Shown: piece after piece, positions 2,403-47,540 of the stretch
Position numbering within the stretch: the first letter of the stretch is position 1
Layout of the letters: every line of letters starts with the position of its first letter
Origin: Arenicellales bacterium
GTDB lineage: Bacteria > Pseudomonadota > Gammaproteobacteria > Arenicellales > JAJDZL01
DNA length: 64,000 nt
Direction: 5' to 3'
NCBI GenBank assembly: GCA_963664525.1
Contig: OY761535.1
Span: 1,295,314 to 1,359,313 of the forward strand
Notes under the pieces: generated by a model
Databases searched by the model: none
What the model was told of the DNA's origin: nothing
The model's input: only the letters and a program-made list of their open reading frames with translations
Translations under genes and position numbers: made by a program

Positions 2403-2882
2403 TTATCCACCGCAACCGCCGATGGTAACTTTAACTTCACTTGCGCCTCTGAATACTTGCCCGTTTGATTTAACCAGTGCAATAACATCAGAGGTTTTTC
2501 CCATCTTGATCCGGACCGACACTTCCGGCACAATACCAGGCTGCAAGTCAAATGCAGCAACCATTGGCGCCGGGTTTTTCGGGACAAGGATAGCGATGGA
2601 TTCGACATTGTCCAGATTCGCTGTGACCTTAATCGGTACAACCGCACCGTTTTCAGCAATTTCCGGACCTTTAACCGTAATTGCATCACTGTCTTGAATG
2701 CCATTTTCTCCGAACAACGCTTTAAGCGTTGCATCAAGATCGTCTGCATCGAAAGCCATTTGAGGACGGTTTGCTGCGTGCGACAGATTACCGAGAAGTC
2801 CCCAAGATGCGGCCAGCCCAACCAAACCGGTTGCTGCTGCACCTTTTAACAACTTGCGTCGCTGTAGATTATTGTTTTTCAT
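2403..2882 (-). CDS. soxY: SoxY sulfur-carrier protein
   Basis: Has a Tat signal (RRKLLKGAAATG) and the hallmark C-terminus VTIGGCGG. The track start at 2891 is a GTG. The ATG at 2882 has AAGAGG about 8 nt upstream, so I prefer 2882. Confidence 0.9.
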   Translation of the reverse strand: MKNNNLQRRKLLKGAAATGLVGLAASWGLLGNLSHAANRPQMAFDADDLDATLKALFGENGIQDSDAITVKGPEIAENGAVVPIKVTANLDNVESIAILVPKNPAPMVAAFDLQPGIVPEVSVRIKMGKTSDVIALVKSNGQVFRGASEVKVTIGGCGG

Positions 2883-2894
2883 CAATATCACCTC

Positions 2895-3254
2895 TTACAG
2901 AGTGTAGATATACTCAGTTATTTTATCAATTTCATCATCGGTCAGAATTCCATGGCGACCAAACGGCGGCATCATCGTATTGGGATTTGCAGCCGTAGCA
3001 TCCCAAATCCGGGCACGCAGTTTCGCCTTTTCTGGAAATCGTTGCTTCATAAAAATCAGTGGTGGGCCATGGGTGCCAGGGAATTGCCCGTCGCCAATAA
3101 TATGGCAGGAAAGACAATTTCCACGCTTGCGATCAAAAGCAACGTTCTTCCCTTCCGCAATGAGTTCAGCGTCAGCAAAACTGACATCGGTCGATAACGC
3201 TGAGACAGAAATCATCGCTATAAATGAAATGATACCAATTGTTGTTTTCATCAT
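2895..3254 (-). CDS. soxX: SoxX monohaem cytochrome c
   Basis: Contains haem motif CLSCH and a signal peptide beginning MMKTTIGIISFIAMISVSALS. First gene of the sox block. The start could be 3254, 3251 or 3311. Confidence 0.8.
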   Translation of the reverse strand: MMKTTIGIISFIAMISVSALSTDVSFADAELIAEGKNVAFDRKRGNCLSCHIIGDGQFPGTHGPPLIFMKQRFPEKAKLRARIWDATAANPNTMMPPFGRHGILTDDEIDKITEYIYTL

Positions 3255-3512
3255 AGTACTGTTTATGACTCCTCGAAAAGAAGTTTGTTTTACTAAAACC
3301 AAGCCCGCCATTGAACAAATTTAAACCTGCAAGAAACTCGACTGGACCAAACATTGTGTTGGGCTCAATTTAAAATGCAGTATTGTATTGTATAAAAGTA
3401 TTTCATTGAATCTGCCAATTTTAGTACCGATGAGTAATGGGGTATTTGACGAAGCGCCATCGTACGCCGAAATGAAAACTACACCCGTTGCATTAATCCT
3501 GTTTTTGACACT

Positions 3513-3878
3513 ATGAACCTGACTTCGGACGAACTCAAAATAATTGCTGCTCAGGCCAGTGACTTTCTTAAACAGTTGGCGAATGAGCAACGATTGATGA
3601 TTTTATGCCATTTGGCCGATGGTGAAAAATCTGTCAGTGAACTGCAGTGCCTGGTAGGACTGGAACAGTCTTCAATATCCCAGCACCTTGCCCGATTGCG
3701 CAAACAAGGGATTATCACTGCGCGGCGAAACTCACAATCAAAGTACTATTCGATTGCTGATGAAAATGTCCTTCAAGTGATTGAATTGTTGCACGCCCTG
3801 TACTGCCAGCCTATTCCATCGCCTTCCATTGACGACGATGATTTTGTGGACCTGGAAACTGAAAATCCGATCAGTTAA
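3513..3878 (+). CDS. ArsR/SmtB-family transcriptional regulator (SoxR/sHdrR-like)
   Basis: 121 aa with the ArsR winged-HTH core (LANEQRLMILCHLADGEKSVSELQCLVGLEQSSISQHLARLRKQGII). Divergent from soxX. No ELCVCDL metal site is present. Confidence 0.85.
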   Translation: MNLTSDELKIIAAQASDFLKQLANEQRLMILCHLADGEKSVSELQCLVGLEQSSISQHLARLRKQGIITARRNSQSKYYSIADENVLQVIELLHALYCQPIPSPSIDDDDFVDLETENPIS

Positions 3879-3899
3879 CTGTCAATTAGTCAATCAAAA

Positions 3900-6800
3900 A
3901 TGAAACCCATTCAAGCGGTGCCAATCGCAGTGATCGGGATGGCTTGTCGGTTTCCAAATCATGCTGCCGATATCCAGTCATTCTGGGAGGTAATCGAAAG
4001 CAAAACCGACTGTATAGGGCCAATTCCTTCCAATCGATGGGACAGTTCGCTACTCGATGGGTTGAATCTTACTTTAGAGACACAATTTGCCAAAGTTGGC
4101 GGGTTTATTGAGTCTGTTTTTGATTTTGATAGTGAGTTTTTCGGGACCTCGTCAACTGAAGCACTACAAATCGACCCTCAACAGCGAATGTTGCTGGAAC
4201 TGGCGTGGCGTTGCATGGAAGATGCCGCATTGTCGCCAAAAATGCTCGAACGCTGTTCCACCGGCGTCTACGTCGGTGTCATCAACCACGATTACGAAAG
4301 ACTGGTGCTCGCAGATCGCAGCGGAATCAATGCTTATTCCGGACTCGGACGATCGACCAGTATTGCCGCCAATCGAATATCATACTTTTTCAACTTGTCA
4401 GGTCCCAGCATCGCGATCGACACAGCCTGCTCATCGTCACTAACGGCTGTTGATGCGGCCTGTAATGCACTATCCAGTGGAAGCGCTAATCTTGCATTTG
4501 CGGGTGGTGCCAACGCAATTCTAGCTCCAGAAAGCTACATCGAATTTTCCAAGGCTGCAATGCTGTCAAAGTCCGGTCGCTGTCAAGCATTTGATGCCAA
4601 TGCAGATGGTTTTGTCCGAGCCGAAGGCGGTGGGCTGATACTGTTGAAGCGCTTAAGCGATGCGCTGATTAACAAAGATCGGATTTACGCGACGATCATC
4701 GCAAGCAGCGTTAACCAGGATGGAAAAACAGCAGGCATCATGGCCCCAGACCCGGCTGCACAACAGGCAATGATGCGCGACGCACTATCGAAATGCGGTC
4801 TAGACCGTAAAGATATCGGTTACGTTGAAGCACATGGCACCGGGACACAGGTGGGCGACACGATTGAAGCCAAATCACTCGGGGCGGTGTACGGACATCC
4901 GAACCTTTTTGTTGGTTCGGTTAAATCGAACATTGGTCACACCGAGGCTGCAGCGGGCATCGCTGGCTTAATCAAAGCAATTCAGGCTGTCTATTTCGGC
5001 AAGATTCCACCGAATCTGCATTTTGCGACCCCAAATCCGAAAATTGACTTTGAATCTTGGGGCATCCGCGTTCCAACTGAATTGCAATCGTGGTGTCCTC
5101 CTCATGGAGGTGCGAGAATCGCTGCGGTCAATTCCTTTGGATTTGGTGGAGCGAATGCCCATGTGATTGTTTGCCAGGCACCGAATCACCATCTTCGTCA
5201 GCGGCAAAAGGATGCATCTGACGTTTGGATTCCAGTGAGTGCCCGAAATAGCAACGCACTTGATGAACTGCGTTCAAGTCTCGAAAATGAAATCTCCGGA
5301 CCCGCGGTACAACTGGAATATCTAGCCTATAGCGCAAATCGCATGCCACGCTTTCAATTTCGTAGTGTGATGAAAATAAGTGCCGACAGCAAAAAGGGCT
5401 CGGCTAAATTACTTGAATCGATCAACCAGGCAAACTCAGGACTGGATCAATCCTGTACAGACGAGAACCCGATTGCCTTTGTTTTTTCAGGGATCGGAAA
5501 GAAATGGGACGGTGAAGGCTCAAAGCTTTATGCAAAATATCCGGTCTTCAAAGCGACAGTTGATCTTTGTGATGAACTGTTTAGTCCAGTCTTGAAGATT
5601 CGACAGACTTTTGTTTCAGGCGATCCATTCGAAGCAGACAATTTAGTCAAAGCGCACGCCATCCACTTTACACTGCAAATTTCACTGTATGAACTGTGGA
5701 AGTCTTGGGCCGTTCAAGCCAAGGCGGTCATCGGACATAGTATGGGGGAAGTTGCCGCAGCCTGTAGCGCTGGATATATCACGTTGCCTGAAGCAGTCGA
5801 ACTTGTCATCGATCGTGCTTCGCGTATTGAGCATTTTTGCAATCAAGGACTGATGCTGGCTGCTTCGCTTCACCCAAAATCCGCACGCGAAATCATTGGT
5901 GCTCATCAACTGAACATTTCATTGGCTGCAATCAATAGCCAAAATTCTGTAACTGTGGCAGGCCCTGGCAACCAAATTCAAAAATTCGCCAATGTGCTGG
6001 ATCAAGCTAACACATTCTACCGGGTATTGGAAGTTCCAGTACCGTTTCACAGTTCGATCATTGAAAGTGCCAGGACAAAATCCTGCACCTTGAGCGGTGC
6101 GATTGACGCAAGTCTGGAAAAACCAACCTGGTATTCGTCCGTCACAGGAACAAAAATCAAGCAGGAGTTTCAAGAAACAGAATTTTGGTGGAATAATTTT
6201 TTAGACCCCGTCAAATTCCATGATGCCGTAACTGATGCAATTCAGTCAGGTCATCGCGTATTTGTAGAAATTGGACCCCATGCAAGCCTTCACTACAACC
6301 TACATGAGTGTTTCGACACACAGAATGTGACAGGTCAAAGCTTCGCTCTTTTCTCGATGCACAAAGACCGAGCCGAAGATAGCACCATGAAAGCCAGCGC
6401 GGCTGCACTATTTAATTTGGGTGTTGACGTCGACTTTCACCAATTCAATCATAGCGGCGCAGTGTGTCAGTTTCCGACAACGCCATTTGCAAGACAATCT
6501 TATCGCAAAGCAGCACCCCGAGTGCAAGACCACTTCGAATATCCAAACAAACCATGTGCTCTTTTGACAAACCAACGCACATCGAGGCAGCACCTGTCCT
6601 GGGAAATTCCGCTCAAAGTTGCCGAATGGCCCTGGCTTGAAAATCATCAACTGCAGGGCAAATTAATTTTTCCAGCGGCCGGTTACATTGAAGCAGCCCT
6701 GCAAGCGGCAAGCCTTAAATATCAGAACTCATCCATTGAACTTCGATCATTGCAATTTTCTAATCTGCTTGAAGTTCAGCCAGACAACGAAACGAGCTTA

Positions 6801-9800
6801 ACGTTCAATCTTCAAAACTGTGCTTTTGTCCAAGATTTTCAGATTTTCAGTAATGCCAGTAGTACCCATGCGCAGACGACGCATTGCCACGGTCAAATCG
6901 AAGCGGGACAACAGGCACGCCCCCAACTTCCAGTCCAAGAAATTCTAAGTACACTCACCACTCATTTGTCCTTCGAGCAAATTGATGAGCGATTCAAAAC
7001 TTGGAACTTTATGGGAGACACCAGCAACTGGGGGCTATCTGATGTCCGAATCGATGGGCACAAAAGATTGATGGCGAAACTTGAACAAAAAAATCCCGCC
7101 AATTCAATTGCACAAGCATGGCTTTTGCATCCATCACTTTTAGATCTTTGTTTTCGTTGTGTTGTTGGAATTGCAGATCCACTCGAACCCGTTGTCCCTT
7201 ACGAAATTGAGTCTTTGAAATATTGGCATGACAAGCCAGACTCAGTTTTTTGTTATATCCAAGTCCTTGACTCAGAAACAGGCACATTGGTAATCGACAT
7301 TGATATTGCAAGCGCTGAAGGGACAGTCATTGCCAGCATTTCCAAACTTCACCTTCGTCAGTTCAGCGGGCACAAATCAGCAAATGTCGCAAATGCCCCC
7401 TCTTTGATCGCCTTCAAACGACAGTGGAAAATCGCTCAAACTGAACTTTCTATAGGATCGCAATTTGATTGCTCACCAACAGACTTTAGAGTGAAGATGG
7501 AAGAATACTCTTCAAATCTCACACAGTCCCAGCAACGATGGCGGCATTATGAAAAGATTAACCCAGCACTGACTGAGATTACAGTCGCCTACATTGGACA
7601 GGCACTACGCCAAGTAGGAATTAAAGTCAAGCCAGGACGAATATCCCTGGGCGATCTTTTCTTGCAGTGCAGGATTAGTCATAGTCAAAGTGACCAATTC
7701 AATGCCTTACTCAAGCTGCTGTCCGTCTGCGGCTACCTTGAATTTGAACAATCTGTCGATGGTTTGACACCTGAAACTGGAATCCATTGGTTAAAGGAAT
7801 TGAACGCTAAGCCTGCCGTCTCGATTGCAAAGTTCTTTACGATGTCAGACGCAGCGCAATATATGGCAGAACTTCAACTCATTTCCCGTTGCGGGAAACA
7901 ACTGCTGCCTGTCCTGACTGGCAAGCGCACCGGGATTGATGTTCTTTTCCCCGAAGGCGCATCTGATCAACTTGAGAATTTTTATTACGGCGCACCCACC
8001 TGTCGGATCTATAACCAAATTCTCAGCCACTCAGTTGAATTGCTGCTTAACTCCTGGCGACTTGCCAGACCTTGCCGAATACTTGAAGTCGGATCCGGTA
8101 CCGGCGCTCTGTTAAGTCTCTTGACTCCGATCCTCAGAAGATACGAGATTGAATATACCTTTACCGATGTCTCAAGCCTTTTTGTTCGGCGCGCGAAATC
8201 ACGTTTTGGCCATTTGAATTTTGTACGATTTGGACAACTCGACCTTAATGCTGATCCAAATACACAGGGATACGAACTTGAGTCGTTCGACATGATTCTG
8301 GCTGCTGATGCTTTGCACTTGACCAATTGCCCCAAACAAGTACTAGAGCACCTAACCAAATTACTGCATCCGGGTGGAAATCTGACATTTGTAGAACTCA
8401 CTGATGAACCCGCCTGGGCACCGATGGTGTTTGGCATGCTACGCGACTGGTGGCCAAGAAGCAAAACCCATCGATCGCCGTATAGCCCTTGCCTTTCCCA
8501 AAGAAGATGGCTAAAACTGATTGATCAGATTGGTATCGATCGTGTCGCTGTATTGAGCGATCGTCCTGGAAACAACGCCGGCATCCATAGCGTTTTTGTG
8601 GCCCGGAAAAAAGGCCAGCCAATCGTAGCAAACGTACCGGTTGAAACCATCGACTGCGATCGCTTGATCTTTTCCAATGGCGGTGAGTTTTCCTGTAACT
8701 TTATTGAACATTTTGATTCGGATAAGACTTTGCGAGTTGCGGCCGGTACGAAATATTGTTTTGACAATAATCGAATTGTCATCGATCCGAACACCGCACA
8801 GCATTTCGTGCAGTTGATTGACGACCTTCGCCAGATAAAAGCACTACCAGATGAAATCTTATTTCTTTGGAATTTTGCCGCTACTGAAGCAGATTCCCAC
8901 TCATTCGAACTAGCGCTTCGCTCATCTTCAGTGCTGGCAATTGCTTCATTATTGAAGGCCTTTGATTATCACGGCCTGACACCTAGTTCTCTGACACTGG
9001 TCAGTTCCAATGCGCACAGAGTAGAGAATCAGGCAAATTTGTCAAACTGTCTGGAAGCCGCGATTTGGGGCTTGGGCAGAACGCTTCGAAACGAATACCC
9101 TGGATTGGATGTGAGATTAATCGACATCGATCCATCAACGGATACGACCGGAAAGAATCTATTTCAATTTTTGCAATCGAACTCTGATTTGCCGGAAGTG
9201 TGTTTAAGAAATTCAATCCAGTTTGTCCCCTTTGACACAAAACTCAATCGCAACAATCTGACGATTGCTCCACCTCGATATGCTGCACTGTCGATTCAAC
9301 GTAGCGCAGGTCTCGATTCGCTGTCTTACAGCCTCAAAACCCTGCCCGGTGCGAAAGATACTGAAGTCGTCATTGAAGTCGCGGTTTGTGCACTTAATTT
9401 CCGTGATGTCATGATTGGACTTGATGCACTACCGGCTTCATCAGTTGAGTACGGATACATGCAGAGATCGATCGGCATTGAGTGCACAGGTACGATTGTA
9501 CGCGTCGGCAATCAGGTTAAAGACTTGGCCGTCGGTGAGCGCGTTGTTGCACTGGCTAAGAATTCACTGGCCAGCCACACCATTACCAATGAAAAGTTTG
9601 TCCACACACTGATAGATAATCAATCGCTTACATCCTATTGTGCATTGCCGACAGCGTACGTTACTGCACTTTATTGTCTGCAAACAATTATTGACCTCAA
9701 GGCGACTGATCGTGTTCTGATTCACTGTGGATCAGGCGGTGTTGGCCTCGCCCTGATCAATCTGGCTAAAAAGTCAGGGTGTGAGGTTTATGCGACAGCC

Positions 9801-11345
9801 GGAACCGTTGACAAGATCGCTTTTCTGAATCTTTTTGGAATTGATCGGGTTGCAGATTCACGAAGTGATTCCTTTGTAAAGGACATTGACACGTGGTCAA
9901 ACGGCAATGGCTGTGATGTGATTGTCAACATGCTCGGTGGGGAATTAGCAGCGGCAAACAAACAGGTTCTGGCAAATGACGGTACTTTCATTGAACTTGG
10001 AAAATATGAAGATCGAGAACAAGTCCACAATGAAATTCAACAGTTCAAACCCAACGCGAAAATTGCTACGGTCGATATCGATCGCCTATGGCTAGAAAAC
10101 CCCGATCAAATTGAAGTTCTTTTCAAAAATGCAATCAAAAAAGTATCAAGTGGTGACCTCCCTGCGCTTCCCTACCAGGTCTTTTCAACAGCCAATGCGA
10201 AAGAAGCGTTCCGACAAATGGCAGCGGCCAAACATATTGGCAAAATCGTACTTACGAGTGATAGGCGACATTCGCACGCGGAATCTCTAGACCAAGAAAC
10301 AATCATTCGAAACAACAGCACATACATCGTAACTGGTGGCACCCGTGGATTTGGACTTGCGACAGCCAATTGGTTGGCTGAACAAGGTGCGCAGCATGTT
10401 GTTGTTATCGGTCGCACACCTTCGAATTCGAATAAACTGGACAGTGTACGAATTAAAGCGTCAGCGCTCGGATGCCAAATCGTTGCGATTGCAGTGGACG
10501 TTTGTGATCTTGAACAGTTTCAATCAAAACTGGAGGCAACATGCCAAGAATTACCGCCTGTTCGCGGTGTTTTTCACTGTGCAATGGAACTTGAAGACAG
10601 CGCAGTCATTAATTTAGATCAGGAACGATTCTATACGTCAACTCGGGCGAAGGTTGTTGGCGCTTGGAACCTATACCAGTTGACAAAACACTTAAGCCTG
10701 GATTTCTTTGTGCTTTATTCGTCTGCAACTTCGGTGTTGGCACCTGCGGGACAAGCGGCATATGCGGCAGCCAACGCCATCATTGATTCTTTTGCAGCTT
10801 ATCTAAAAGAATCTGGCGTACCAGCTCTGGCAGTGAATTGGGGCGCAGTTTCAGATTATGGACGAGTTGCTGATCTTCCGATAGAATCAACGGCTGTTGG
10901 CAAACAGTTCGGTATTGATGCTCTTCCTGCTGATGAAATGCTCGCCACCTTAAATGGCTTGCTAAAGAATCGTGATATAGCGCAAGCCATTGTTGTAGGC
11001 AGCTGCAGCTCAACTGATGACGGTCACAGCGCTATGCATGGTTTTGGCAGTATACCCAAGGGCAAACAACCGATCTCAAGCGCAAAAGACAGGGCTGGGT
11101 TAAAAGTTGATTCAGATTCGGTTTTGGATTGCATTTCACGAATTTTGGATATTCCAAAAAACGAAATCAATATCGACGATTCCATTGCCAATCTGGGCAT
11201 TGACAGCCTGCTTGCAGTTGAATTGTCGCATCATCTTCGAGCTAGCTGTCAGATTGAAATCAGCGCTGCGTCGTTATTGGACAAAGTTACGACAAAAGAA
11301 GTGATCGAATTTGCCGGTTTACGCGATCCATTCAACTCGGGTTGA
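3900..11345 (+). CDS. single-module, fully reducing type I polyketide synthase (KS-AT-DH-cMT-ER-KR-ACP)
   Basis: Uninterrupted 2,481-aa ORF. Motifs:
- KS: DTACSSS (Cys177), EAHGTGT, NIGHTEAAAG.
- AT: GHSMGE, PFHS.
- DH: HQLQGKLIFP (HxxxGxxxxP), HPSLLD.
- cMT: ILEVGSGTG, ALHLT.
- ER: HCGSGGVGLA.
- KR: VTGGTRGFG, AAYAAAN.
- ACP: LGIDSLLAVEL.
The ORF ends about 45 aa after the ACP serine. Confidence 0.95.
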   Translation: MKPIQAVPIAVIGMACRFPNHAADIQSFWEVIESKTDCIGPIPSNRWDSSLLDGLNLTLETQFAKVGGFIESVFDFDSEFFGTSSTEALQIDPQQRMLLELAWRCMEDAALSPKMLERCSTGVYVGVINHDYERLVLADRSGINAYSGLGRSTSIAANRISYFFNLSGPSIAIDTACSSSLTAVDAACNALSSGSANLAFAGGANAILAPESYIEFSKAAMLSKSGRCQAFDANADGFVRAEGGGLILLKRLSDALINKDRIYATIIASSVNQDGKTAGIMAPDPAAQQAMMRDALSKCGLDRKDIGYVEAHGTGTQVGDTIEAKSLGAVYGHPNLFVGSVKSNIGHTEAAAGIAGLIKAIQAVYFGKIPPNLHFATPNPKIDFESWGIRVPTELQSWCPPHGGARIAAVNSFGFGGANAHVIVCQAPNHHLRQRQKDASDVWIPVSARNSNALDELRSSLENEISGPAVQLEYLAYSANRMPRFQFRSVMKISADSKKGSAKLLESINQANSGLDQSCTDENPIAFVFSGIGKKWDGEGSKLYAKYPVFKATVDLCDELFSPVLKIRQTFVSGDPFEADNLVKAHAIHFTLQISLYELWKSWAVQAKAVIGHSMGEVAAACSAGYITLPEAVELVIDRASRIEHFCNQGLMLAASLHPKSAREIIGAHQLNISLAAINSQNSVTVAGPGNQIQKFANVLDQANTFYRVLEVPVPFHSSIIESARTKSCTLSGAIDASLEKPTWYSSVTGTKIKQEFQETEFWWNNFLDPVKFHDAVTDAIQSGHRVFVEIGPHASLHYNLHECFDTQNVTGQSFALFSMHKDRAEDSTMKASAAALFNLGVDVDFHQFNHSGAVCQFPTTPFARQSYRKAAPRVQDHFEYPNKPCALLTNQRTSRQHLSWEIPLKVAEWPWLENHQLQGKLIFPAAGYIEAALQAASLKYQNSSIELRSLQFSNLLEVQPDNETSLTFNLQNCAFVQDFQIFSNASSTHAQTTHCHGQIEAGQQARPQLPVQEILSTLTTHLSFEQIDERFKTWNFMGDTSNWGLSDVRIDGHKRLMAKLEQKNPANSIAQAWLLHPSLLDLCFRCVVGIADPLEPVVPYEIESLKYWHDKPDSVFCYIQVLDSETGTLVIDIDIASAEGTVIASISKLHLRQFSGHKSANVANAPSLIAFKRQWKIAQTELSIGSQFDCSPTDFRVKMEEYSSNLTQSQQRWRHYEKINPALTEITVAYIGQALRQVGIKVKPGRISLGDLFLQCRISHSQSDQFNALLKLLSVCGYLEFEQSVDGLTPETGIHWLKELNAKPAVSIAKFFTMSDAAQYMAELQLISRCGKQLLPVLTGKRTGIDVLFPEGASDQLENFYYGAPTCRIYNQILSHSVELLLNSWRLARPCRILEVGSGTGALLSLLTPILRRYEIEYTFTDVSSLFVRRAKSRFGHLNFVRFGQLDLNADPNTQGYELESFDMILAADALHLTNCPKQVLEHLTKLLHPGGNLTFVELTDEPAWAPMVFGMLRDWWPRSKTHRSPYSPCLSQRRWLKLIDQIGIDRVAVLSDRPGNNAGIHSVFVARKKGQPIVANVPVETIDCDRLIFSNGGEFSCNFIEHFDSDKTLRVAAGTKYCFDNNRIVIDPNTAQHFVQLIDDLRQIKALPDEILFLWNFAATEADSHSFELALRSSSVLAIASLLKAFDYHGLTPSSLTLVSSNAHRVENQANLSNCLEAAIWGLGRTLRNEYPGLDVRLIDIDPSTDTTGKNLFQFLQSNSDLPEVCLRNSIQFVPFDTKLNRNNLTIAPPRYAALSIQRSAGLDSLSYSLKTLPGAKDTEVVIEVAVCALNFRDVMIGLDALPASSVEYGYMQRSIGIECTGTIVRVGNQVKDLAVGERVVALAKNSLASHTITNEKFVHTLIDNQSLTSYCALPTAYVTALYCLQTIIDLKATDRVLIHCGSGGVGLALINLAKKSGCEVYATAGTVDKIAFLNLFGIDRVADSRSDSFVKDIDTWSNGNGCDVIVNMLGGELAAANKQVLANDGTFIELGKYEDREQVHNEIQQFKPNAKIATVDIDRLWLENPDQIEVLFKNAIKKVSSGDLPALPYQVFSTANAKEAFRQMAAAKHIGKIVLTSDRRHSHAESLDQETIIRNNSTYIVTGGTRGFGLATANWLAEQGAQHVVVIGRTPSNSNKLDSVRIKASALGCQIVAIAVDVCDLEQFQSKLEATCQELPPVRGVFHCAMELEDSAVINLDQERFYTSTRAKVVGAWNLYQLTKHLSLDFFVLYSSATSVLAPAGQAAYAAANAIIDSFAAYLKESGVPALAVNWGAVSDYGRVADLPIESTAVGKQFGIDALPADEMLATLNGLLKNRDIAQAIVVGSCSSTDDGHSAMHGFGSIPKGKQPISSAKDRAGLKVDSDSVLDCISRILDIPKNEINIDDSIANLGIDSLLAVELSHHLRASCQIEISAASLLDKVTTKEVIEFAGLRDPFNSG
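3912..5180 (+). other. PKS ketosynthase domain (approximate bounds)
   Basis: aa ~5-427. The Cys-His-His triad motifs are all present. Confidence 0.85.
5472..6389 (+). other. PKS acyltransferase domain (approximate bounds)
   Basis: aa ~525-830. GHSMGE active-site serine. The specificity motif reads VPFHS, closer to HAFH (malonyl) than YASH (methylmalonyl). Confidence 0.8.
6567..7379 (+). other. PKS dehydratase domain (approximate bounds)
   Basis: aa ~890-1160. Contains HxxxGxxxxP at His916 and a downstream HPSLLD. Confidence 0.75.
7887..8429 (+). other. PKS C-methyltransferase domain with intact SAM motif (approximate bounds)
   Basis: aa ~1330-1510. Sequence: RILEVGSGTGALL...YTFTDVS...LDLNADP...ILAADALHLT...LLHPGGNLTFVE. 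Confidence 0.75.
9297..10259 (+). other. PKS enoylreductase domain (approximate bounds)
   Basis: aa ~1800-2120. MDR-type fold with an LIHCGSGGVGLALINLA nucleotide motif. Confidence 0.8.
10317..10859 (+). other. PKS ketoreductase domain (approximate bounds)
   Basis: aa ~2140-2320. Contains YIVTGGTRGFGLA and catalytic-region YSSATSVLAPAGQAAYAAANA. Confidence 0.8.
11112..11324 (+). other. PKS acyl carrier protein domain (approximate bounds)
   Basis: aa ~2405-2475. LGIDSLLAVEL holds the phosphopantetheine serine. Confidence 0.8.
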
Positions 11346-11403: not shown

Positions 11404-12489
11404 TCAATTCCAAATGTCAACATCAATACCCTTTTCGATCAGGTGTTCAGCGCGATTGGAAATATAACGCTGAAAATTTGGCTCATCTCGATACGCCTCG
11501 GTGTCGACATAATCAAATAGTGATAGGGTATGAAAACGCTTAAACCAAGCCTCTGAACGAATAATCTCTTTACCGCTCCTATCGAAAAGAACGATCGTTG
11601 GTGCGAAGCTGACATCAAGACTGTCAGCCCAGTCCCGTGCTGTGGTGTCTACACCATTGATGTCGGTCAGTTGGTCGTTTGACCACATATCCAACTGAAC
11701 CGCGTCAAATTTCTCGACGTACTGGCGTACATTCGGATCAACCAACACCTTATTGTGCAGTGTCTCGCAGTTTGGGCACTGGGATTGTTCGAAAAATACG
11801 GCCAATGGGCGAGCTTCTGACTTTCTTTGCAGGTCGTAAGGCGGCGGCTGAAAAAAGGGCTGAGATATCAGTTGCTCCATACTGGGACTACTGTCTGTAT
11901 GGGCGGCTCGAACGAATTCCCGATATGACACCTTGGATTCATGTCGGTCTGCAACGAAATCAATGGCTGTTAAGAAATCCTGAGGTGGAAGATAACCATT
12001 GAGTTTAAGAATCGCCTTGCCTTTTTCGTTAAAAAAGAGCAGCGTCGGCGTAAACTGCACTTTCAAGGCAGCAGAGAAATCCTTTTCGGAATAAGATTTT
12101 CCGCCAACAGTTACAACTTCCCGATCTCCCCAAATGTTGATCGCAATCACGTCGAATTTCGACTTTACCTTTTCCAGAATATTTTTTTGACTCAAATTTC
12201 GCTCGACCAGTAAATTGCAATAGGGGCAACCATCCTGGTGAAACAACAGCATCACTCTTTTTCCTTGCTCTGCAGCTTCGGCGATGTCGTCACTGAATTC
12301 AAGAAAACTTTCCTTAAACCAGTCTGGGTATTCGGTTGGTTTCGCTCCGGAAAACGTACCTTGGACAGTGCTACTACCTGCAGTGACAGTGTCGTCCTGC
12401 TGCGCATGGACTGGAATAAATGCCAAACCTGTCAATAAAAACAGCGCAATAACTAGATCTTTTAAGGTTGATTTGATTCGCTTGTTCAT
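11404..12489 (-). CDS. periplasmic protein with two thioredoxin-like folds (CPYC and CPNC)
   Basis: 361 aa with a signal peptide (LVIALFLLTGLAFIPVHA). Two CxxC sites, HQDGCPYCN and EQSQCPNCE, each sit in a Trx-like context. Confidence 0.7.
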   Translation of the reverse strand: MNKRIKSTLKDLVIALFLLTGLAFIPVHAQQDDTVTAGSSTVQGTFSGAKPTEYPDWFKESFLEFSDDIAEAAEQGKRVMLLFHQDGCPYCNLLVERNLSQKNILEKVKSKFDVIAINIWGDREVVTVGGKSYSEKDFSAALKVQFTPTLLFFNEKGKAILKLNGYLPPQDFLTAIDFVADRHESKVSYREFVRAAHTDSSPSMEQLISQPFFQPPPYDLQRKSEARPLAVFFEQSQCPNCETLHNKVLVDPNVRQYVEKFDAVQLDMWSNDQLTDINGVDTTARDWADSLDVSFAPTIVLFDRSGKEIIRSEAWFKRFHTLSLFDYVDTEAYRDEPNFQRYISNRAEHLIEKGIDVDIWN

Positions 12490-20385: not shown

Positions 20386-20682
20386 TTAGTCAAAATCAAT
20401 TCTCTTCAACGCGCTCGTGTCTATCGTCTGTCTCACTTTATACAAGTCGAAACCTTCTTGTAGCGCTAGCCAGCTTTCAGCTGAACTGCCAAGTACTTTA
20501 GAAAGGCGAACCGCCAATTCCGGCGAAATTCCGGACTTGCCGTTCAATAATCGGTTGAATGTACTTCGAGCCACTCCCAACTGATTTGCTACTCCATTCG
20601 AGGTAATTCCCTCAAAAGGTTCGATATACGTACGTAGAATCAATTCTCCAGGATGAGGAGGGTTATTTTGTCGATAACTCAT
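20386..20682 (-). CDS. higA: HigA-type antitoxin (XRE HTH), orphaned
   Basis: 98 aa. Contains HPGELILRTYIEP...GVANQLGVARSTFNRLLNGKSGISPELAVRLSKVLG. Confidence 0.8.
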   Translation of the reverse strand: MSYRQNNPPHPGELILRTYIEPFEGITSNGVANQLGVARSTFNRLLNGKSGISPELAVRLSKVLGSSAESWLALQEGFDLYKVRQTIDTSALKRIDFD

Positions 20683-20754
20683 CAGTGATAGTCCTTATAG
20701 TTCACAGAGTGGGCATCACAACCATCAAACGTAATGAGTAAGTATTCACTTGCC
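20682..20754 (-). pseudogene. 3' fragment of a HigB toxin gene (last ~24 codons only)
   Basis: My minus-strand translation gives KASEYLLITFDGCDAHSVNYKDYH*, with the TGA overlapping the downstream higA ATG (TGATG). Compare the intact HigB C-terminus RICFRFRDGDAFDVEIVDYHK. The frame is closed by a TAG just upstream, at the stop of the neighbouring higA. Confidence 0.55.
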
Positions 20755-21048
20755 TTAAGCCACTATACGCGGACGAATTGCATTTAGAGCATCAACCTCC
20801 TTTGATTTTGCAATCTCAAGTTCATAAAGAGACTGAAGATTGATCCAACTCCTTGCATCGGTATTGAAATATCGCGCTAAACGCAGTGCTGTACTCGCTG
20901 TGATTCCTCGACGACCGAGGACAATATCGTTGATTCGCGTTGGTGTTACTCCAAGCGCATTGGCCAATGCTGTGGCTGAAAGACCAAAAGGTTCCATGAA
21001 CTCGTACTTCAAAATCTCGCCAGGATGAACAGGTTGTAGTTTATTCAT
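20755..21048 (-). CDS. higA: HigA-type antitoxin (XRE HTH)
   Basis: 97 aa. Contains HPGEILKYEFMEPFGLSATALANALGVTPTRINDIVLGRRGITASTALRLARYF. Confidence 0.85.
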   Translation of the reverse strand: MNKLQPVHPGEILKYEFMEPFGLSATALANALGVTPTRINDIVLGRRGITASTALRLARYFNTDARSWINLQSLYELEIAKSKEVDALNAIRPRIVA

Positions 21049-21159
21049 ATTGTCCCTCCATTTTTTTAAGGAACTTGAATATTAAGTCATTGATATAGTT
21101 GTATTAGAAAATATTTATTCTTTGATATAGGCGTTGCCACCATCAATAGCACTGGGGAC

Positions 21160-21441
21160 TTATTTGTGATAATCTACTATTTCCACGTCAAAGGCATCTC
21201 CGTCACGAAAACGAAAACAAATCCTCCATTGATCATTTATCCGAATGCTGTATGAACCCGATCGTTTACCACGTAAAACCTCTAATCGGTTTCCGGGTGG
21301 AATTCGCAAGAATTCAATCGATGTAGCGGCATTCAATAGTGCGAGCTTCCGCTGAGCGACTCGCTCGAAGTTTCGAAAACGCCGTACCCGAATCTGGTTA
21401 GCGAGTCTCTCGGTATCCTTACTACGATAACTCCGAATCAT
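21160..21441 (-). CDS. higB: HigB toxin (RelE/ParE superfamily, 'killer protein')
   Basis: 93 aa. MIRSYRSKDTERL...LRIPPGNRLEVLRGKRSGSYSIRINDQWRICFRFRDGDAFDVEIVDYHK. Confidence 0.85.
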   Translation of the reverse strand: MIRSYRSKDTERLANQIRVRRFRNFERVAQRKLALLNAATSIEFLRIPPGNRLEVLRGKRSGSYSIRINDQWRICFRFRDGDAFDVEIVDYHK

Positions 21442-26833: not shown

Positions 26834-29800
26834 TTATGAGGACATTGACTCCGAACTTCGGCCTAGTAAATGCACTTCGCTGATCGCAACAGTCAATGTA
26901 GCAAAATCGATTTTGCTGATTGACTTCATATCCTTGATGATGCTGGCCAACATTCGACAGCTAACCCGATTGGATTCCATCCAAACATCAACAGCATGTT
27001 GTGGGCTGTCTGTCGAGGCATGTTGAACAACGTCGCTTGCAATGGCTGACTGATGGGTGTGAATATCGTCGCTCAATCTTGATTTGGCGAGTCCGTGCCA
27101 TCGGTTTTCAACCGGTAGATTAGCAACCTGCTGGCGAATCCAAACCAATTCCAGTCTGGCACCGATATCGAAATATACCTGTGAGACAAATTCAGCGGTT
27201 TTTTCTGATTGCTTGATGATTTCAACGATGTCCAGGGCTGTTGATAGCGGTATGCATTCAACAACTTGCCGGGCAAGTTTTTGCGGCACCTTGTTATCGA
27301 CCAAATCGTCGATGTAGTGTTTGATTTGACTGGTATATTCTCTGCTGAGCGATTTCGAAAGCCCGCTGGAAAGTTTTTGAACATCGCCTTTGAAATAATC
27401 GACCACCTCGGCAATATTGAGTGGATGGTTCCGATGACGAAGCAGCCAAAGTGTGGTCCGTTCCAGTAATCCTTCAGCCAATTTCAGCATTTTCAACTGA
27501 CTGGAGGCTGGCACCTTGTTATCCATGTTTTCAACTGCCGACCAGATATCTTGCATGTCAAAAATATCTCTAGCGGCACAGTACGATCTTGCGATATCAG
27601 CATAAGCAGCACCCGACAAACCACGCATTCGGTAGGCAAATGTTGGACCGACCCGATTAATCATGTTGTTCGTCACGAAGGTCGCAACGATCTCCCTTTT
27701 TAATCGATGTTCATACATCTCTTTACTGAATTGCTTTGACAGACGGTCAGGGAAGTACTCAGACAGGTCTCTGTCCAGGTAATCATCCTCAGGCATATTC
27801 GAATCGAGCAATGCATCGTACAAAGTCATCTTCGAATAAGCAAGCAACACGGAAAGCTCCGGCAGTTTGAGTCCAATGCCGATCGATTCGCGCCTTTTGA
27901 TTTCTTCCCAATCCGGTAAAAATTCAATTTCCCGATCGAGCTGGTCCGATCTTTCCAGTGCCTGAATATACTGACTGTGTTCATTGAGCAACTCAGGTGA
28001 ATGAACATTGAGGGAACTGAGTGCCTGGCTTTGTTGGTAGTTGTTTTCCAATACCAGTTCAGCGACCTCTTCTGTCATTTCCCTGAGGATCTTTTCGCGC
28101 TGCTTAACGGTCATTTCACCGTGATTAACAACTTGGTTGAGCAATATCTTGATATTCACTTCGTGGTCTGAACAATCCACACCACCTGAATTGTCAATCG
28201 AGTCGGTATAACAGCGACCGCCATGCATGCAATACTCGACGCGACCGAGTTGAGTCATACCAAGATTTCCACCTTCACCGACGACCTTGGCACCAAGTTC
28301 CGAACCATCAACTCGAATCGCATCGTTGGAACGATTTTCTGTATCAGCATGCGATTGTGTCGAGGCTTTAACGTAAGTACCAATTCCGCCATTCCACATT
28401 AAATCAACCGGCGCCTTGAGCATGGCATGCATCAATTCGTTGGGTGTAAGCTTGGACTGTGTTATGTTCAATCGTTTTTGCACGGCCGGTGAAATATCGA
28501 TCGCCTTAGCAGTGCGATCGAATACCCCACCGCCTTCGGAAATCAACTTTTTGTCATAGTCTTTCCAACTCAGCCCTGGTGAATTAAAGAGCCTTTCCCG
28601 TTCCTGGTAGCTAATCTCGGCATCGGGGTTGGGGTCTAAAAATATTTCGATGTGATTAAAGGCACCAACCAATTGGATGTGCCGGGACAGCAGCATGCCA
28701 TTTCCGAAAACATCTCCGCCCATGTCACCGATGCCAATGGCTGTAAAATCCGTCGTCTGAATATCAACACCCAGTTCGCGAAAGTGCCGTTTCACCGACT
28801 CCCAGGCACCCCGGGCTGTAATACCCATCGCTTTGTGGTCATATCCAACTGAACCACCGGAAGCAAACGCATCTCCCATCCAAAAGCCATACTCTTCAGA
28901 AATTTTGTTGGCAATATCCGAAAAAGTCGCAGTCCCCTTGTCCGCTGCGACAACAAGATAGGGGTCATCATCATCGTAACGCTTTACATTTGCAGGATGG
29001 ACAATTTTGTCATCGACAATGTTGTCCGTGATGTCGAGCATACCGCGGATAAAGGTTGAATAACAAAATATCGCCTCATCCAACATGCTTGTGCCCGGTG
29101 CCGGTGGCTGTTTAATCACGAATCCACCTTTTGAGCCGACCGGTACGATGACTGCATTTTTGACCATCTGCGCTTTCACCAGGCCCAGCACCTCGGTCCT
29201 GAAGTCTTCTCGCCGATCTGACCACCTCAATCCACCACGCGCAACTTTACCGCCGCGCAGGTGTACCGCCTCAGTGCGCGGTGAATATACGAATATTTCA
29301 TATTTTGGTCGTGGGTCCGGCATCCGAATGATTCGCATGCAATCAATTTTGAAAGAAATGTAGTCATGTGGATGACCCGATGAATCTATACAAAAATAGT
29401 TGGTGCGTATCGTCGAAGTCATCGCATTTTTATAGCTTCGAAGTATCACGTCTTCATCCAGACTGGACACCGCATCAAGATGCGCATCCATCACTTTCCT
29501 GATTCGATTGACTTCCTGGTCGGACGAACCCGCAGTCGGATCAAATTTGACCTCGAAATATCGGATCAAGCTGGCAGTCATGTCGATATTTCGAATCAGT
29601 GTGTCGGTTACATAGGCACTGCTGAAAGTGTGACCAATTTGTTTCAAATACTTGCTGTAAGCGCGCAAAACCGAAACCTGTCTCCAGGTTAAATTCGCCA
29701 TCAATACGAGGCGGTTAAACACATCGTTCTCCGCAGCACCGCGCCAGATATTAATAAAGGCCTGCTCAAAACTTTGGCGCTGCTGGTCAGCGTCATATTC

Positions 29801-33462: not shown

Positions 33463-33545
33463 TTATCACCGCATAATGTGCGACAATTATTTTTAATTTT
33501 GCGGTGATTAAACCTTACATTCACCTTGTTTTGTGCGGTGATTAA
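33463..33545. promoter_or_regulatory. repeated TGCGGTGAT(T)AA boxes upstream of the Fic gene
   Basis: TTATCACCGCA sits at 33463-33473 in inverted orientation. TGCGGTGATTAA occurs at 33500-33511 and again at 33534-33545, the latter abutting the start codon. Confidence 0.3.
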
Positions 33546-41151: not shown

Positions 41152-41292
41152 ATTTTGCCTCCTTATTTTTCAATGCAAATGAAGTGAAAACATTTTTTTA
41201 TCACAATAATCCTGTAATTGCAATAGTGCAATCCAGTTCAGTATAGGTTAATTGCGCGAGCCAGTACTACGATTCTAAACTCGCCATTGGCA

Positions 41293-42399: not shown

Positions 42400-42429
42400 T
42401 TTTTCGTCCTTAATTTGAAATAATGAGTT

Positions 42430-43392: not shown

Positions 43393-43405
43393 TGACTGAC
43401 TCCTG

Positions 43406-44524: not shown

Positions 44525-44533
44525 GAATCACAC

Positions 44534-44968
44534 TCATGCATTCGTGTATTGACCTCGCAGTTCAACTGGCAACAAGTCTATGAGACTGTCTGAATCATGT
44601 AACTCATTGATTTCTAATTCCCAAGATGCTGGAGCAATGGCCACCAACCAACCGCTACCATACGGGTCGGAACTGACCATGCGCGGATTTTCAAGCGCAG
44701 GTTCATTCCGTTCAACAATCGTACCGCTGACAGGACTGACGATATCGCTGGTCATTTTTGCCGCCTCCATTGAACCAATCGACTGTCCTCGTACAACATG
44801 GGTGCCAGGCTCAGCAAGTGTCAGATACGCGAGCTCACCTAGCGATTCGATGGCTGGCGATCCTATACCGACGTGCAAATTTTCGTTTTCCGTAACTGGT
44901 TTGACCCACAAATACGACTCACCATCGTAGATTCGGTCACAAGGTAGGCCGGAATTTTGATCAGGCAT
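44534..44968 (-). CDS. lbpA: lipoate-binding protein LbpA (GcvH-like)
   Basis: 144 aa with the lipoyl-lysine motif GSMEAAKMTSDIVSPVSG. Confidence 0.8.
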   Translation of the reverse strand: MPDQNSGLPCDRIYDGESYLWVKPVTENENLHVGIGSPAIESLGELAYLTLAEPGTHVVRGQSIGSMEAAKMTSDIVSPVSGTIVERNEPALENPRMVSSDPYGSGWLVAIAPASWELEINELHDSDSLIDLLPVELRGQYTNA

Positions 44969-44993
44969 TTCTAATCTCCTTGATATTCGTGCG

Positions 44994-47515: not shown

Positions 47516-47540
47516 CATAACGACATCATTTGGTGATTTT

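Follow-up and report, generated by a model that had tools for sequence, protein, structure and literature searches.

A stand-alone reducing polyketide synthase gene behind a predicted sulfane-sulfur-sensing repressor in Arenicellales

A single module that is used iteratively is the norm for fungal highly reducing polyketide synthases (HR-PKSs) and animal fatty acid synthases (FASs). Single-module, FAS-like PKSs with no surrounding assembly line are represented by the Sup enzymes of uncultured marine sponge-linked bacteria, for which Fieseler et al. in 2007 reportedly gave the SupA domain order KS-AT-DH-MT-ER-KR-ACP. Mid-chain-branched fatty acids are the proposed products of Sup enzymes, which are small monomodular PKSs (PMC4245539). 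Mycocerosic acid synthase (MAS) and Pks2, the phthioceranic acid synthase, hand a saturated methyl-branched acyl product to a separate acyltransferase. With regard to ArsR-family repressors of the persulfide-sensor type, H. denitrificans SoxR loses DNA binding when its Cys50 and Cys116 are linked by a tri- to pentasulfide bridge (PMC10451225). The Hyphomicrobium SoxR/sHdrR regulons contain a fatty-acid synthesis gene set, a precedent for the reading given below, and the term 'polyketide' is absent from the text of the paper describing them (PMC12423496).

The locus described here lies in a 64-kb stretch of Arenicellales DNA (the window, 64,000 nucleotides), in which a PKS gene follows an ArsR-family gene. 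Because the PKS lies directly behind this sulfur-sensing type of repressor in nearly all relatives, a methyl-branched lipid may be made by this marine sulfur oxidiser as part of its sulfur response, a proposal in which we infer both the product and the regulation.

Domain content and affinity of the synthase

The PKS is encoded by one uninterrupted ORF of 2481 aa on the + strand (3900-11345) with the domains KS-AT-DH-cMT-psiKR-ER-KR-ACP. The original prediction had described a 7.4-kb gene for KS-AT-DH-cMT-ER-KR-ACP with all catalytic motifs intact; a Pfam profile search of the window ORFs, in which all PKS domains score far above the gathering scores, confirms that order and adds the psiKR, and an alignment of 30 family members (36-56% identity) shows the catalytic residues to be invariant or nearly so. 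The KS (3921-5024, aa 8-375; PF00109 and PF02801) has invariant C177, H312 and H347 and is joined to the AT by a linker recognised by Pfam (aa 378-489). The AT (5478-6425, aa 527-842) carries GHSMGE (S614), R639, H717 and VPFH. Family-wide, the serine motif is GHS[M/V/I/L]GE, Arg639 is invariant and [V/I/L]PFH aligns to YASH of DEBS AT3; xAFH in an AT has been taken as a malonyl indicator (PMC3908369). GHSMGE, R639 and VPFH indicate that the AT would be of the malonyl type. The N-terminal motif, which the original prediction had missed, reads G-I-G in this protein and follows G-[I/M/L]-G throughout the family in place of the canonical GQG, so that substrate use by the AT may be unusual.

In the DH (6579-7382, aa 894-1161; PF21089 and PF14765), H916xxxGxxxxP and D1082 are invariant. 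The cMT (7863-8573; Pfam methyltransferase aa 1387-1529) retains ILEVGSGTG, and its H1473/E1499 dyad aligns to the His and Glu of the CurJ cMT, its best PDB match (5thy, E 5e-46); it is not degenerate on this alignment, as had been foreseen when it was called apparently active, and the other domain motifs are likewise intact in the family alignment. A structural (pseudo) KR (8664-9173, aa 1589-1758; PF21394 Beta-ketacyl_N, E 3e-12) precedes the ER (9357-10253, aa 1820-2118; PF08240, PF00107 and PF13602), which has a conserved GSGGVG. The catalytic KR (10317-10853, aa 2140-2318; PF08659, E 2e-53) has GGTRGFG, K2251/S2274/Y2288/N2292 and a B-type-like xxD motif, AMELEDS, and the ACP (11118-11312, aa 2407-2471; PF00550) has GIDS2436L. 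Comparison of C-terminal tails finds no TE, reductase or docking domain, with only about 10 residues after the ACP, and Pfam finds no loading domain.

The window contains a single KS match, as does every related locus. All 17 full-length PKS ORFs are intact (2453-2493 aa), with dN/dS of 0.22-0.28 for close pairs and about 0.1 for distant pairs, and by these measures the enzyme is intact and under selection. As judged from its sequence, it is predicted to be a functional type I synthase, self-contained and descended from bacterial cis-AT enzymes, comprising one module with a full reducing loop and an active-looking cMT. As originally reported, PPTase, thioesterase, tailoring and export genes are absent nearby; the interval of 10 kb around the PKS contains no gene for a PPTase, thioesterase, FAAL, acyltransferase or exporter. 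With no linked PPTase, starter-activating enzyme or release enzyme, the product is not deducible from the locus.

The likeness to fungal HR-PKSs proposed at the outset holds for domain order and fails for sequence affinity. The KS scores 392 bits against CurL, about 350-370 against DEBS, Pik and Pks13, 345 against MAS, 319 against LovB and 267 against animal FAS, and the cMT scores 160 bits against CurJ, 99 against PksCT and 88 against LovB; on these scores both domains are of bacterial cis-AT types, and 'fungal-like' applies to domain order only. Horizontal transfer of a fungal HR-PKS, or eukaryotic contamination of the assembly, would account for a domain order identical to that of LovB and for a weak match to PF23297, the fungal sdgA ACP model. 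The KS and cMT nevertheless score higher against bacterial CurL, CurJ, DEBS and MAS than against LovB or PksCT, the ORF is uninterrupted, its GC content equals that of the flanks (0.45-0.49) and bacterial synteny is conserved at 20 loci. A fungal origin or contamination is thus wildly improbable, and is refuted for practical purposes.

The layout had also been thought unusual for a stand-alone gene in a gammaproteobacterium. Its rarity is not supported, as cyanobacteria, Chloroflexi and actinomycetes also have this layout in one ORF. Three such loci (L012, L013, L021) encode KS-AT-DH-cMT-ER-KR in one ORF (the ACP was not scored), with about 32% overall and about 50% KS identity. In the nearest outgroup, Microcoleus (L012), a docking-C-A-T-TE NRPS and an MFS exporter come after the PKS.

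At full length the best PDB match is MAS (9d2z, 752 bits) and the best NCBIfam match is Pks2, although below its cut-off. These matches, and the absence of a TE and a loading domain as in MAS, would fit a primer-dependent elongase of the MAS/Pks2 kind that lengthens a fatty acyl primer, provided by FAS or by an unlinked FAAL, by one or a few C-methylated C2 units, with an unlinked acyltransferase passing the chain to a lipid head group. Such an elongase is possible but rather doubtful, given a malonyl-type VPFH motif in the AT versus the methylmalonyl-type YASH of MAS, a branch that would come from a cMT, which MAS is without, and a FAAL or PapA-like gene in none of the 20 loci. The G-I/M-G motif of the AT, which may resemble that of the self-priming animal FAS malonyl/acetyl transferase, would also speak against primer dependence.

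The repressor gene and its genomic setting

The ArsR-family gene (3513-3878, +; HTH_5, E 2e-13) is separated by 21 nt from the PKS start at 3900 and is transcribed divergently from soxXYZA-(small ORF)-B, as originally predicted. The best PDB matches of its product are V. cholerae HlyU (4k2e) and R. capsulatus SqrR (6o8l; E about 1e-22), followed by Xylella BigR (3pqj), with 42% identity to SqrR and 47% to HlyU. Cys32 and Cys98 align to the sensing cysteines of SqrR, BigR, HlyU and SoxR, and neither varies among the orthologue sequences inspected. The original prediction had noted that Paracoccus SoxR and the sHdrR repressors are of the ArsR family; these matches support assignment of the regulator to the SoxR/SqrR persulfide-sensor branch.

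The sox genes lie on the - strand. SoxX (2895-3311) scores 92 bits with TIGR04485 thiosulf_SoxX (cut-off 61), soxZ (2067-2378) matches PF08770 (E 8e-34) and soxA (1193-2029) matches PF21342 SoxA-TsdA_cyt-c (E 8e-25). SoxY (2393-2842) is assigned by position and orthology; the window protein itself has no Pfam match, and the ORFs flanked by soxX and soxZ in related loci share 41-53% identity with it and carry PF13501 SoxY. A 104-aa ORF between soxA and soxB (863-1177), the 'K' of the original prediction, has a signal-peptide-like N-terminus, no significant Pfam match, 64% identity to its L161 counterpart and an unchanged position in all sox-linked loci. The window start cuts soxB (1-657), leaving the N-terminal 219 aa (tblastn with L161 SoxB, 68% identity over 219 aa). 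Downstream of the PKS, and convergent with it, is trx2 (11404-12489, -), for a periplasmic double thioredoxin with a signal peptide, two Thioredoxin_2 domains and the motifs CPYC and CPNC.

Members of the PKS family occur only in MAGs of uncultured Arenicellales and related Gammaproteobacteria, from which 20 distinct loci were compared (PKS identity 35-92%). The orthologues are not dispersed over unrelated contexts, which favours the proposed pairing: of the 20 loci, 18 have the ArsR gene directly upstream of the PKS and in the same orientation, 16 have sox adjacent and 18 have a convergent trx2 after the PKS. The gap between the two genes is 21-116 nt in 17 loci, mostly 54-116 nt, and 949 nt in one (L167). 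A second, sox-free context holds the ArsR-PKS-Trx2 trio in the other four (L010, L011, L165, L169), and L162 and L164 retain an intact PKS beside soxX with neither ArsR nor Trx2, which makes the PKS independent of the regulator's presence. The ArsR orthologue group comprises 41 clusters at identities of at least 64%, followed by a drop to at most 59%, and is similar in size to the PKS family; none of 80 more distant ArsR relatives (44-57% identity) has a PKS beside it.

The spacer (3879-3899, +) has no promoter-like or terminator-like site in or around it, and no promoter-like site was detected on the + strand between 3200 and 4100. A Shine-Dalgarno-like sequence upstream of the PKS start is absent in every locus. 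The divergent soxX-arsR intergenic region (3312-3512), the presumed location of promoter and operator, contains a direct repeat (AGTATTGTATTGTAT / AGTATTTCATTGAAT; 3379-3411) and a palindrome (TTCATTGAA; 3402-3410). No operator motif common to the loci rises above shuffled controls; an ATTCAnTGAAT-like element seen in some loci is no more frequent than in shuffled sequence, and the operator is therefore a presumed one.

These data bear on whether the neighbourhood might be inherited with no regulatory coupling. ArsR would then be SoxR itself, Trx2 a SoxS/SoxW-like Sox accessory, and the PKS an insertion between them in an Arenicellales ancestor, with its own promoter and unrelated to sulfur. 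A single order supplied all 20 loci, so that vertical inheritance can account for much of the synteny, and the ArsR gene has the linkage to soxYZ that marks bona fide soxR genes (PMC10451225). Trx2, being periplasmic, cannot act on a cytoplasmic PKS, and the PKS persists without either neighbour in L162 and L164. The gaps of most loci leave room for a promoter, and that of L167 makes an independent PKS promoter possible. This account is nonetheless unlikely, since the window gap is just 21 nt with no + strand promoter-like site nearby, and in three separate assemblies the whole trio has shifted together to a site away from sox. Moreover, ArsR and PKS stay contiguous while outer neighbours vary or are rearranged, and a PKS lies downstream of every ArsR orthologue examined, including all three chosen as possibly PKS-less because their contigs were off the PKS list.

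The sulfur link might also be incidental to a proteobacterial Sup-family enzyme making methyl-branched fatty acids of a sponge holobiont, whose chemistry would overlap that of the preferred reading. Besides the proposed Sup product, SUP-like clusters occur in sponge Proteobacteria MAGs (PMC9426513), sponge-associated sulfur oxidisers occur among Arenicellales (family LS-SOB; PMC10356861, PMC12481749), and several related genomes reach 130-306x coverage in single samples, suggesting host-associated metagenomes. The window KS also contains DPQQR and HGTGT, the primer motifs used for supA amplification. However, accessory genes, among them one for a SupE-like permease, were not found nearby, and the sponge-specific KS clade mapped mostly to Gemmatimonadetes and Alphaproteobacteria (PMC10308959), leaving Sup membership a tentative option that we doubt.

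Proposed function and regulation

On balance it seems somewhat probable that the PKS is a stand-alone, probably iterative, malonyl-fed, C-methylating and fully reducing synthase whose gene shares a transcript with that of a sulfane-sulfur sensor and is derepressed by this sensor. The AT would select malonyl units, the cMT could methylate the alpha carbon after each condensation, and the B-type KR, DH and ER would fully reduce the beta-keto group, with the chain built iteratively or by extension of a fatty-acyl primer. From this combination we infer an ACP-bound product that is a saturated, methyl-branched acyl chain of the fatty-acid type, to be released or transferred by an enzyme encoded elsewhere. 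The arsR and PKS genes would form a two-gene unit under a dithiol ArsR-type repressor. Sulfane sulfur that builds up during thiosulfate or sulfide oxidation would form a polysulfide bridge between Cys32 and Cys98, and the bridged repressor would leave its operator in the soxX-arsR intergenic region, allowing transcription of arsR-PKS and, in most genomes, of the divergent sox operon.

Comparison with known systems

Fungal HR-PKSs (LovB 7cpx, PksCT cMT 5mpt) and animal FAS (2vz8) share the domain order, with the MT between DH and psiKR; KS and cMT similarity to them is lower than to bacterial PKSs, the context here is bacterial, and animal FAS differs further in having an inactive MT and a TE. 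Among solved structures the closest KS and cMT are those of CurL KS-AT (4mz0, 392 bits) and CurJ (5thy, 160 bits). The cyanobacterial PKS-NRPS pairs, as in Microcoleus, have the same KS-AT-DH-cMT-ER-KR layout in one ORF and differ in their docking-C-A-T-TE NRPS and MFS exporter, whereas the Arenicellales PKS is without partner, docking tail or release domain.

MAS and Pks2 resemble the Arenicellales PKS in their single TE-less module containing DH, ER and KR, in being its best full-length structural and family matches, and in the saturated methyl-branched acyl product predicted here. They use methylmalonyl-CoA and have no cMT, whereas the Arenicellales AT appears to be malonyl-type with the branch introduced by the cMT, and the PKS has no linked gene for a FAAL or PapA partner. 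Likened by description, the Sup enzymes share the single FAS-like module, the origin in uncultured marine bacteria and a methyl-branched fatty acid as hypothesised product; the Arenicellales PKS differs in having neither a SupE permease gene nor other sup accessory genes nearby, and no mention of sox or ArsR linkage was found in the sup literature examined.

The putative sulfur-sensing regulator shares with SoxR, SqrR, BigR and HlyU a winged-helix ArsR fold of about 100-120 aa, the 42-47% identity to SqrR and HlyU and both sensing cysteines at aligned positions, and, like bona fide soxR genes, its gene is divergent from and adjacent to soxXYZA; what differs is the 7.4-kb PKS directly downstream. 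The locus is a combination of known kinds, a Sup-like or MAS-like monomodular PKS with a SoxR-type repressor.

Domain organization and conservation of the PKS

The polyketide synthase (PKS) is an intact, conserved and selected stand-alone module with a malonyl-type AT and an active-looking C-methyltransferase (cMT). It is encoded by a single open reading frame of 2481 codons (window 3900-11345, +) in which Pfam models, all scoring far above their gathering thresholds, define a KS (residues 8-375), a KS-AT linker (378-489), an AT (527-842), a DH (894-1161), the cMT (1387-1529), a structural KR subdomain (psiKR, 1589-1758), an ER (1820-2118), a KR (2140-2318) and an ACP (2407-2471). Only about 10 residues follow the ACP and no N-terminal extension precedes the KS, and therefore the protein lacks loading, docking, thioesterase and reductase domains. 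Every catalytic motif listed in the original prediction is present in the translation, and conservation was judged by aligning 30 full-length homologues with 36-56% identity. The KS triad (Cys177/His312/His347) is invariant in this alignment, as are Ser614 of the AT (GHSxGE), its carboxylate-binding Arg639 and its catalytic His717. Residues that are invariant or nearly so among the 30 homologues include His916 (HxxxGxxxxP) and Asp1082 of the DH, the GGVG motif of the ER, Lys2251/Ser2274/Tyr2288/Asn2292 of the KR, the DSL serine of the ACP (Ser2436), and, in the cMT, the glycine-rich motif, His1473 and Glu1499.

Degeneration of the cMT would have undermined the predicted architecture. The domain is not degenerate, because its best match among solved structures is the CurJ cMT (5thy, E 5e-46), and in that alignment it keeps the SAM motif (ILEVGSGTG) and places His1473 and Glu1499 opposite the His and Glu that, reportedly from the work of Skiba et al. 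in 2016, form the catalytic dyad of CurJ. By established motifs, the AT sequence indicates a specificity for malonyl rather than methylmalonyl units, because VPFH is aligned to the YASH of DEBS AT3 and the family as a whole carries [V/I/L]PFH together with GHS[M/V/I/L]GE. One member has IAFH, a motif that has been read as malonyl-type by equal reasoning (PMC3908369). Near its N-terminus (window 5478-5510) the AT has G-I-G, and all family members have G-[I/M/L]-G; among 196 other PKS ATs compared, 159 have the canonical GQG there, and the difference may reflect unusual substrate handling. The malonyl/acetyl transferase of animal FAS presumably has GMG at this position, a likeness to the family motif. 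By its domains and residues the enzyme is a type I cis-AT, fully reducing module with a C-methyltransferase, and this enzymological description, taken alone, is held with high confidence.

All 17 full-length PKS ORFs compared are intact (2453-2493 aa). Their dN/dS is 0.22-0.28 in pairs that are ~90% identical, 0.22 in a paralogue pair, and ~0.1 in distant pairs with saturated dS; for neighbouring genes, the same pairs yield values of 0.04-0.36. Purifying selection acts on the PKS, yet the PKS evolves faster than its neighbours, with 35-56% identity to the window protein across genomes versus 63-89% for SoxA, 60-86% for ArsR and 84-92% for the SDR. Two alternative accounts of the gene are effectively excluded: pseudogenisation, which is ruled out by the intact ORFs and dN/dS of 0.1-0.28, and a fungal origin, which, like assembly contamination, is ruled out by similarity scores, GC content and synteny.

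With regard to distribution, a first protein search returned ~50 clusters (at 90% identity) of 2450-2500 aa with the same domain set and 36-56% identity, most of them on contigs of 2-4 Mb, and the family is present in complete chromosomes of uncultured Arenicellales. An alignment scan with the cMT region, using one genome per GTDB species, found 12 family loci, all in MAGs labelled "Arenicellales bacterium" or unclassified gammaproteobacterial, with next-best matches (<=41%) from other phyla. With DH-cMT-psiKR (residues 880-1800) as query, HMMER was run exhaustively against 1.84 billion representatives and gave 13 family representatives at 326-820 bits, followed by a drop to ~300 bits and 26-31% identity in proteins with uninformative names. 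One related locus, on a 112-kb contig of 4x coverage, has a Homeodomain (PF00046) ORF (2720-3364, -) ~6 kb upstream of ArsR-PKS, which could be a eukaryote-like symbiont protein or could reflect a chimeric assembly with host DNA.

A conserved ArsR-PKS-thioredoxin trio in two genomic contexts

The 3′-end of the ArsR gene (3513-3878, +, HTH_5) lies 21 nt ahead of the PKS start, and divergently upstream of it are soxX (TIGR04485), soxY (assigned by orthology), soxZ, soxA, an ORF of 104 aa and soxB, of which the window edge leaves only the start. Convergent with the 3′-end of the PKS is Trx2 (11404-12489, -), a periplasmic double thioredoxin of 361 aa with a signal peptide and two thioredoxin domains (CPYC and CPNC), beyond which follow a Mug-like glycosylase, an LplA-like ligase, the SDR, an aminotransferase and a kinase-like gene. 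Consistent with the original prediction that PPTase, thioesterase, tailoring and export genes are missing nearby, no PPTase, thioesterase, FAAL, acyltransferase or exporter was found within 10 kb of the PKS. The whole window contains one KS only, as does each of 15 related loci (a single KS match per locus), and it has no Rfam match. A promoter or terminator between ArsR and PKS would have spoken against their co-transcription; a simple consensus scan of 3200-4100 detected no promoter-like or terminator-like site on the + strand, and 21 nt would in any case be too short for a full promoter or terminator.

Neighbouring genes were checked in 20 distinct loci by tblastn and by gene calls of further contigs. 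ArsR is directly upstream of the PKS on the same strand in 18 of these, at a distance of 21-116 nt (949 nt in a single exception, L167), and a convergent Trx2 lies downstream of the PKS in 18 of 20; soxXYZA...B adjoins in 16. The predicted linkage of ArsR and sox to the PKS is thus borne out. In the remaining four loci, from three assemblies (L010 and L011 of one genome, L165 and L169), the trio occurs without sox nearby, and it stands instead behind glycine-cleavage-T-like and aconitase-family genes. Two loci (L162 and L164) have an intact PKS beside soxX without ArsR and without Trx2, and because both genes are missing together, they seem to have been gained or lost jointly. Trx2 itself is interrupted by an insertion of ~2 kb in one locus (L007, 13494-16570) and broken into three short ORFs in another (L080, 15976-16691).

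The association is also seen from the side of the regulator. At >=64% identity there are 41 clusters of ArsR homologues, after which identity falls to <=59%, and three orthologues picked for contig sizes absent from the PKS list all have a PKS directly downstream (3/3). Of the more distant ArsR relatives in JGI metagenomes, 80 were checked (44-57%) and none stands beside a PKS; this sample says nothing on Arenicellales lacking the PKS.

The main rival to a functional connection is that the adjacency was merely inherited, with no regulatory coupling between the genes. All of the evidence comes from one order, as such an account would have it; on the other side, the association of ArsR, PKS and Trx2 is tighter than general synteny, because the flanks outside the trio differ between loci, where BREX, toxin-antitoxin or purine genes are found. 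Inherited adjacency is considered unlikely, and, if it were correct, what remains would be a stand-alone cMT-PKS peculiar to one clade and of modest interest. The two trio copies of L010 and L011 (OY762925.1), which are ~177 kb apart across the record ends, might suggest that the trio duplicates as a unit. All of their genes are intact (78% identity for PKS, 95% for ArsR, 92% for Trx2), and the copies lie within a collinear segmental duplication of 15 kb with 87% nucleotide identity. The duplication carries other genes as well and so does not serve as an argument for the trio; the sox-free context that recurs in further genomes does.

Elsewhere in the window, positions 40000-56706 hold a further sulfur-oxidation module, which is of sHdr-LbpA type. 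It comprises, on the minus strand, a radical-SAM protein (41293-42399), an LplA-like ligase (43406-44524), a GCV_H/LbpA-like protein (44534-44968) and a Sulf_transp YeeE/SoxT-like transporter (44994-46202), and, on the plus strand, a DsrE-like protein (50153-50533) and a run of Fer4, CCG, FAD, hypothetical, Fer4 and CCG genes (50542-56296), whose order agrees with sHdrC1B1A-hyp-C2B2. No second ArsR gene was seen beside this module when ORFs of >=90 aa were considered. A squalene/phytoene synthase family gene (46451-47515, +) sits between the LbpA and sHdr blocks. The window further encodes a NAD-specific glutamate dehydrogenase of 1605 aa (26834-31651, -) and a cytochrome P450 (31792-33227, -) split into two overlapping ORFs, of which 32286-33227 matches profile positions 3-288 and 31792-32346 matches positions 291-457; the split reflects either a pseudogene with a frameshift or an error of the assembly. 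Genes of mobile or defence type are two HTH_3 proteins with a HigB-like toxin (20386-21441, -) and a DUF4172-Fic protein (33545-34303, +), and GC content drops to 0.425 at 20-22 kb and at 34-36 kb.

The regulator and a possible sulfur-responsive mechanism

The gene immediately upstream of the PKS encodes an ArsR of the persulfide-sensor type. Its winged-helix domain matches PF01022 (HTH_5) with E 2e-13, and it scores 78 bits against the BigR model NF040642, under the equivalog cut-off of 155 bits. The closest solved structures are HlyU of V. cholerae (4k2e, 47% identity), SqrR of R. capsulatus (6o8l, 42% identity) and BigR of Xylella (3pqj), with E values from 1e-22 to 1e-16. Cys32 (LMILCHL) and Cys98 (LYCQ) align with the cysteine pair of SqrR/HlyU and are invariant among the orthologue sequences inspected; Cys46 is not conserved. 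The corresponding pair in SoxR, Cys50/Cys116, has a sensing role, and linkage to soxYZ or to catalytic sox genes is the criterion for a bona fide soxR (PMC10451225). The window ArsR is divergent from soxXYZA, and 14 of the 18 ArsR-bearing loci are sox-adjacent. Judged by sequence and by linkage, it is probably a persulfide sensor of the SoxR/SqrR/BigR type. No shared operator could be defined in silico upstream of ArsR, where palindromes vary between loci and the best 9-mer, AATTCA[A/T]TG (7/14 loci), is equalled by shuffled controls.

In the proposed mechanism, arsR and the PKS gene would be co-transcribed from the divergent sox/arsR intergenic region, and sulfane sulfur would bridge Cys32 and Cys98 of ArsR and so lift repression. 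The PKS would then build a saturated, methyl-branched acyl chain on its ACP, working iteratively or extending a fatty acyl primer, and release of the chain would fall to an enzyme encoded elsewhere. A reducing, C-methylating PKS that is co-transcribed with, and derepressed by, a sulfane-sulfur sensor is somewhat favoured as a combined account; for the sulfur-responsive co-transcription taken by itself, the balance is even.

A further reading is that the ArsR is a sulfane-sulfur sensor dedicated to the PKS and not just a Sox regulator, such that methyl-branched lipid synthesis is switched on by reactive sulfur in sulfur oxidisers that are probably sponge-associated. This is offered tentatively and is on present evidence rather doubtful; if true, no polyketide or lipid pathway before it would have been under the direct control of a persulfide sensor. 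The Sup-type PKSs, long unassigned, might in addition gain a proteobacterial example that is regulated and resolved at genome level. Monomodular FAS-like PKSs dominate surveys of PKSs in sponge microbiomes, and their products, producers and regulation have been unresolved since 2007. A real coupling would mean that sensors of the SoxR/SqrR type, whose known outputs are sulfur oxidation and detoxification, also control specialised lipid synthesis. The unexpected pairing provides an orphan PKS class with a testable induction condition, since a fixed persulfide-sensor partner suggests exposure to thiosulfate, sulfide or polysulfide, and ArsR-PKS is a simple two-gene unit for heterologous work; product and regulation are at this stage predicted, in organisms that are uncultured.

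Relation to known polyketide synthases and sulfur regulons

The domain order KS-AT-DH-cMT-psiKR-ER-KR-ACP is also that of fungal highly reducing PKSs, and to this extent the original description of the enzyme as fungal-like stands as a statement on architecture. It does not stand as a statement on affinity, as compared here by bit scores against solved structures and not by phylogeny. The KS scores 392 bits against CurL, 350-370 against Pks13, Pik and DEBS (DEBS ~356) and 345 against MAS, and lower against Dictyostelium Pks16 (340), LovB (319) and animal FAS (267); the cMT scores 160 against CurJ, 113 against DisA, 99 against PksCT and 88 against LovB. The full-length protein reaches 752 bits with MAS, and the best NCBIfam model, Pks2, stays under its cut-off. 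Because of these KS, cMT and full-length scores, the PKS is assigned to the bacterial cis-AT lineage, with a layout that coincides with those of fungal highly reducing PKSs and animal FAS, and is not regarded as a fungal-type enzyme.

Among bacterial systems, MAS-like PKSs are likewise single, fully reducing modules without a thioesterase. They differ in that their branches come from a methylmalonyl AT (YASH), where the present AT has VPFH, and in their linked FAAL and PapA-type acyltransferase, neither of which is found in the window or in the related loci. Microcoleus, Rhizonema, Caldilinea and several actinomycetes encode this layout in one ORF as well, again with a single KS per locus, in proteins with ~32% overall and 41-52% KS identity to the window PKS. 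In the Microcoleus outgroup locus (L012) the PKS is followed by an NRPS (docking-C-A-T-TE) and an MFS exporter, so that release is solved in cis there, unlike in the Arenicellales loci.

The Sup PKSs are monomodular enzymes that dominate sponge KS amplicons, for which mid-chain-branched fatty acids have been proposed as products and whose source organisms were unresolved in 2014 (PMC3908369, PMC4245539); later binning assigned SUP-like clusters to Chloroflexota, Spirochaetota, Proteobacteria and Acidobacteriota (PMC9426513). Like them, the present PKS is a small monomodular enzyme outside an assembly line, with one KS per locus. The accompanying sup genes, as far as the table in PMC3908369 represents them (for example, the SupE permease), have no counterpart at the PKS loci, and no permease or other biosynthetic gene is beside the PKS in any locus examined. 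The relatives of the PKS are Arenicellales MAGs, from an order that includes sponge symbionts, and Arenicellales of the family LS-SOB include sponge-associated sulfur oxidisers (PMC10356861, PMC12481749). In the three papers that mention both Arenicellales and polyketide synthase, neither term appears in any title or abstract. The repressors SoxR and sHdrR affect a set of fatty-acid synthesis genes (PMC12423496), and the word "polyketide" is absent from that regulon paper. Overall, the system is a monomodular reducing PKS of a Sup-like or MAS-like kind that keeps a fixed partner, a putative sensor of the SoxR/SqrR type.
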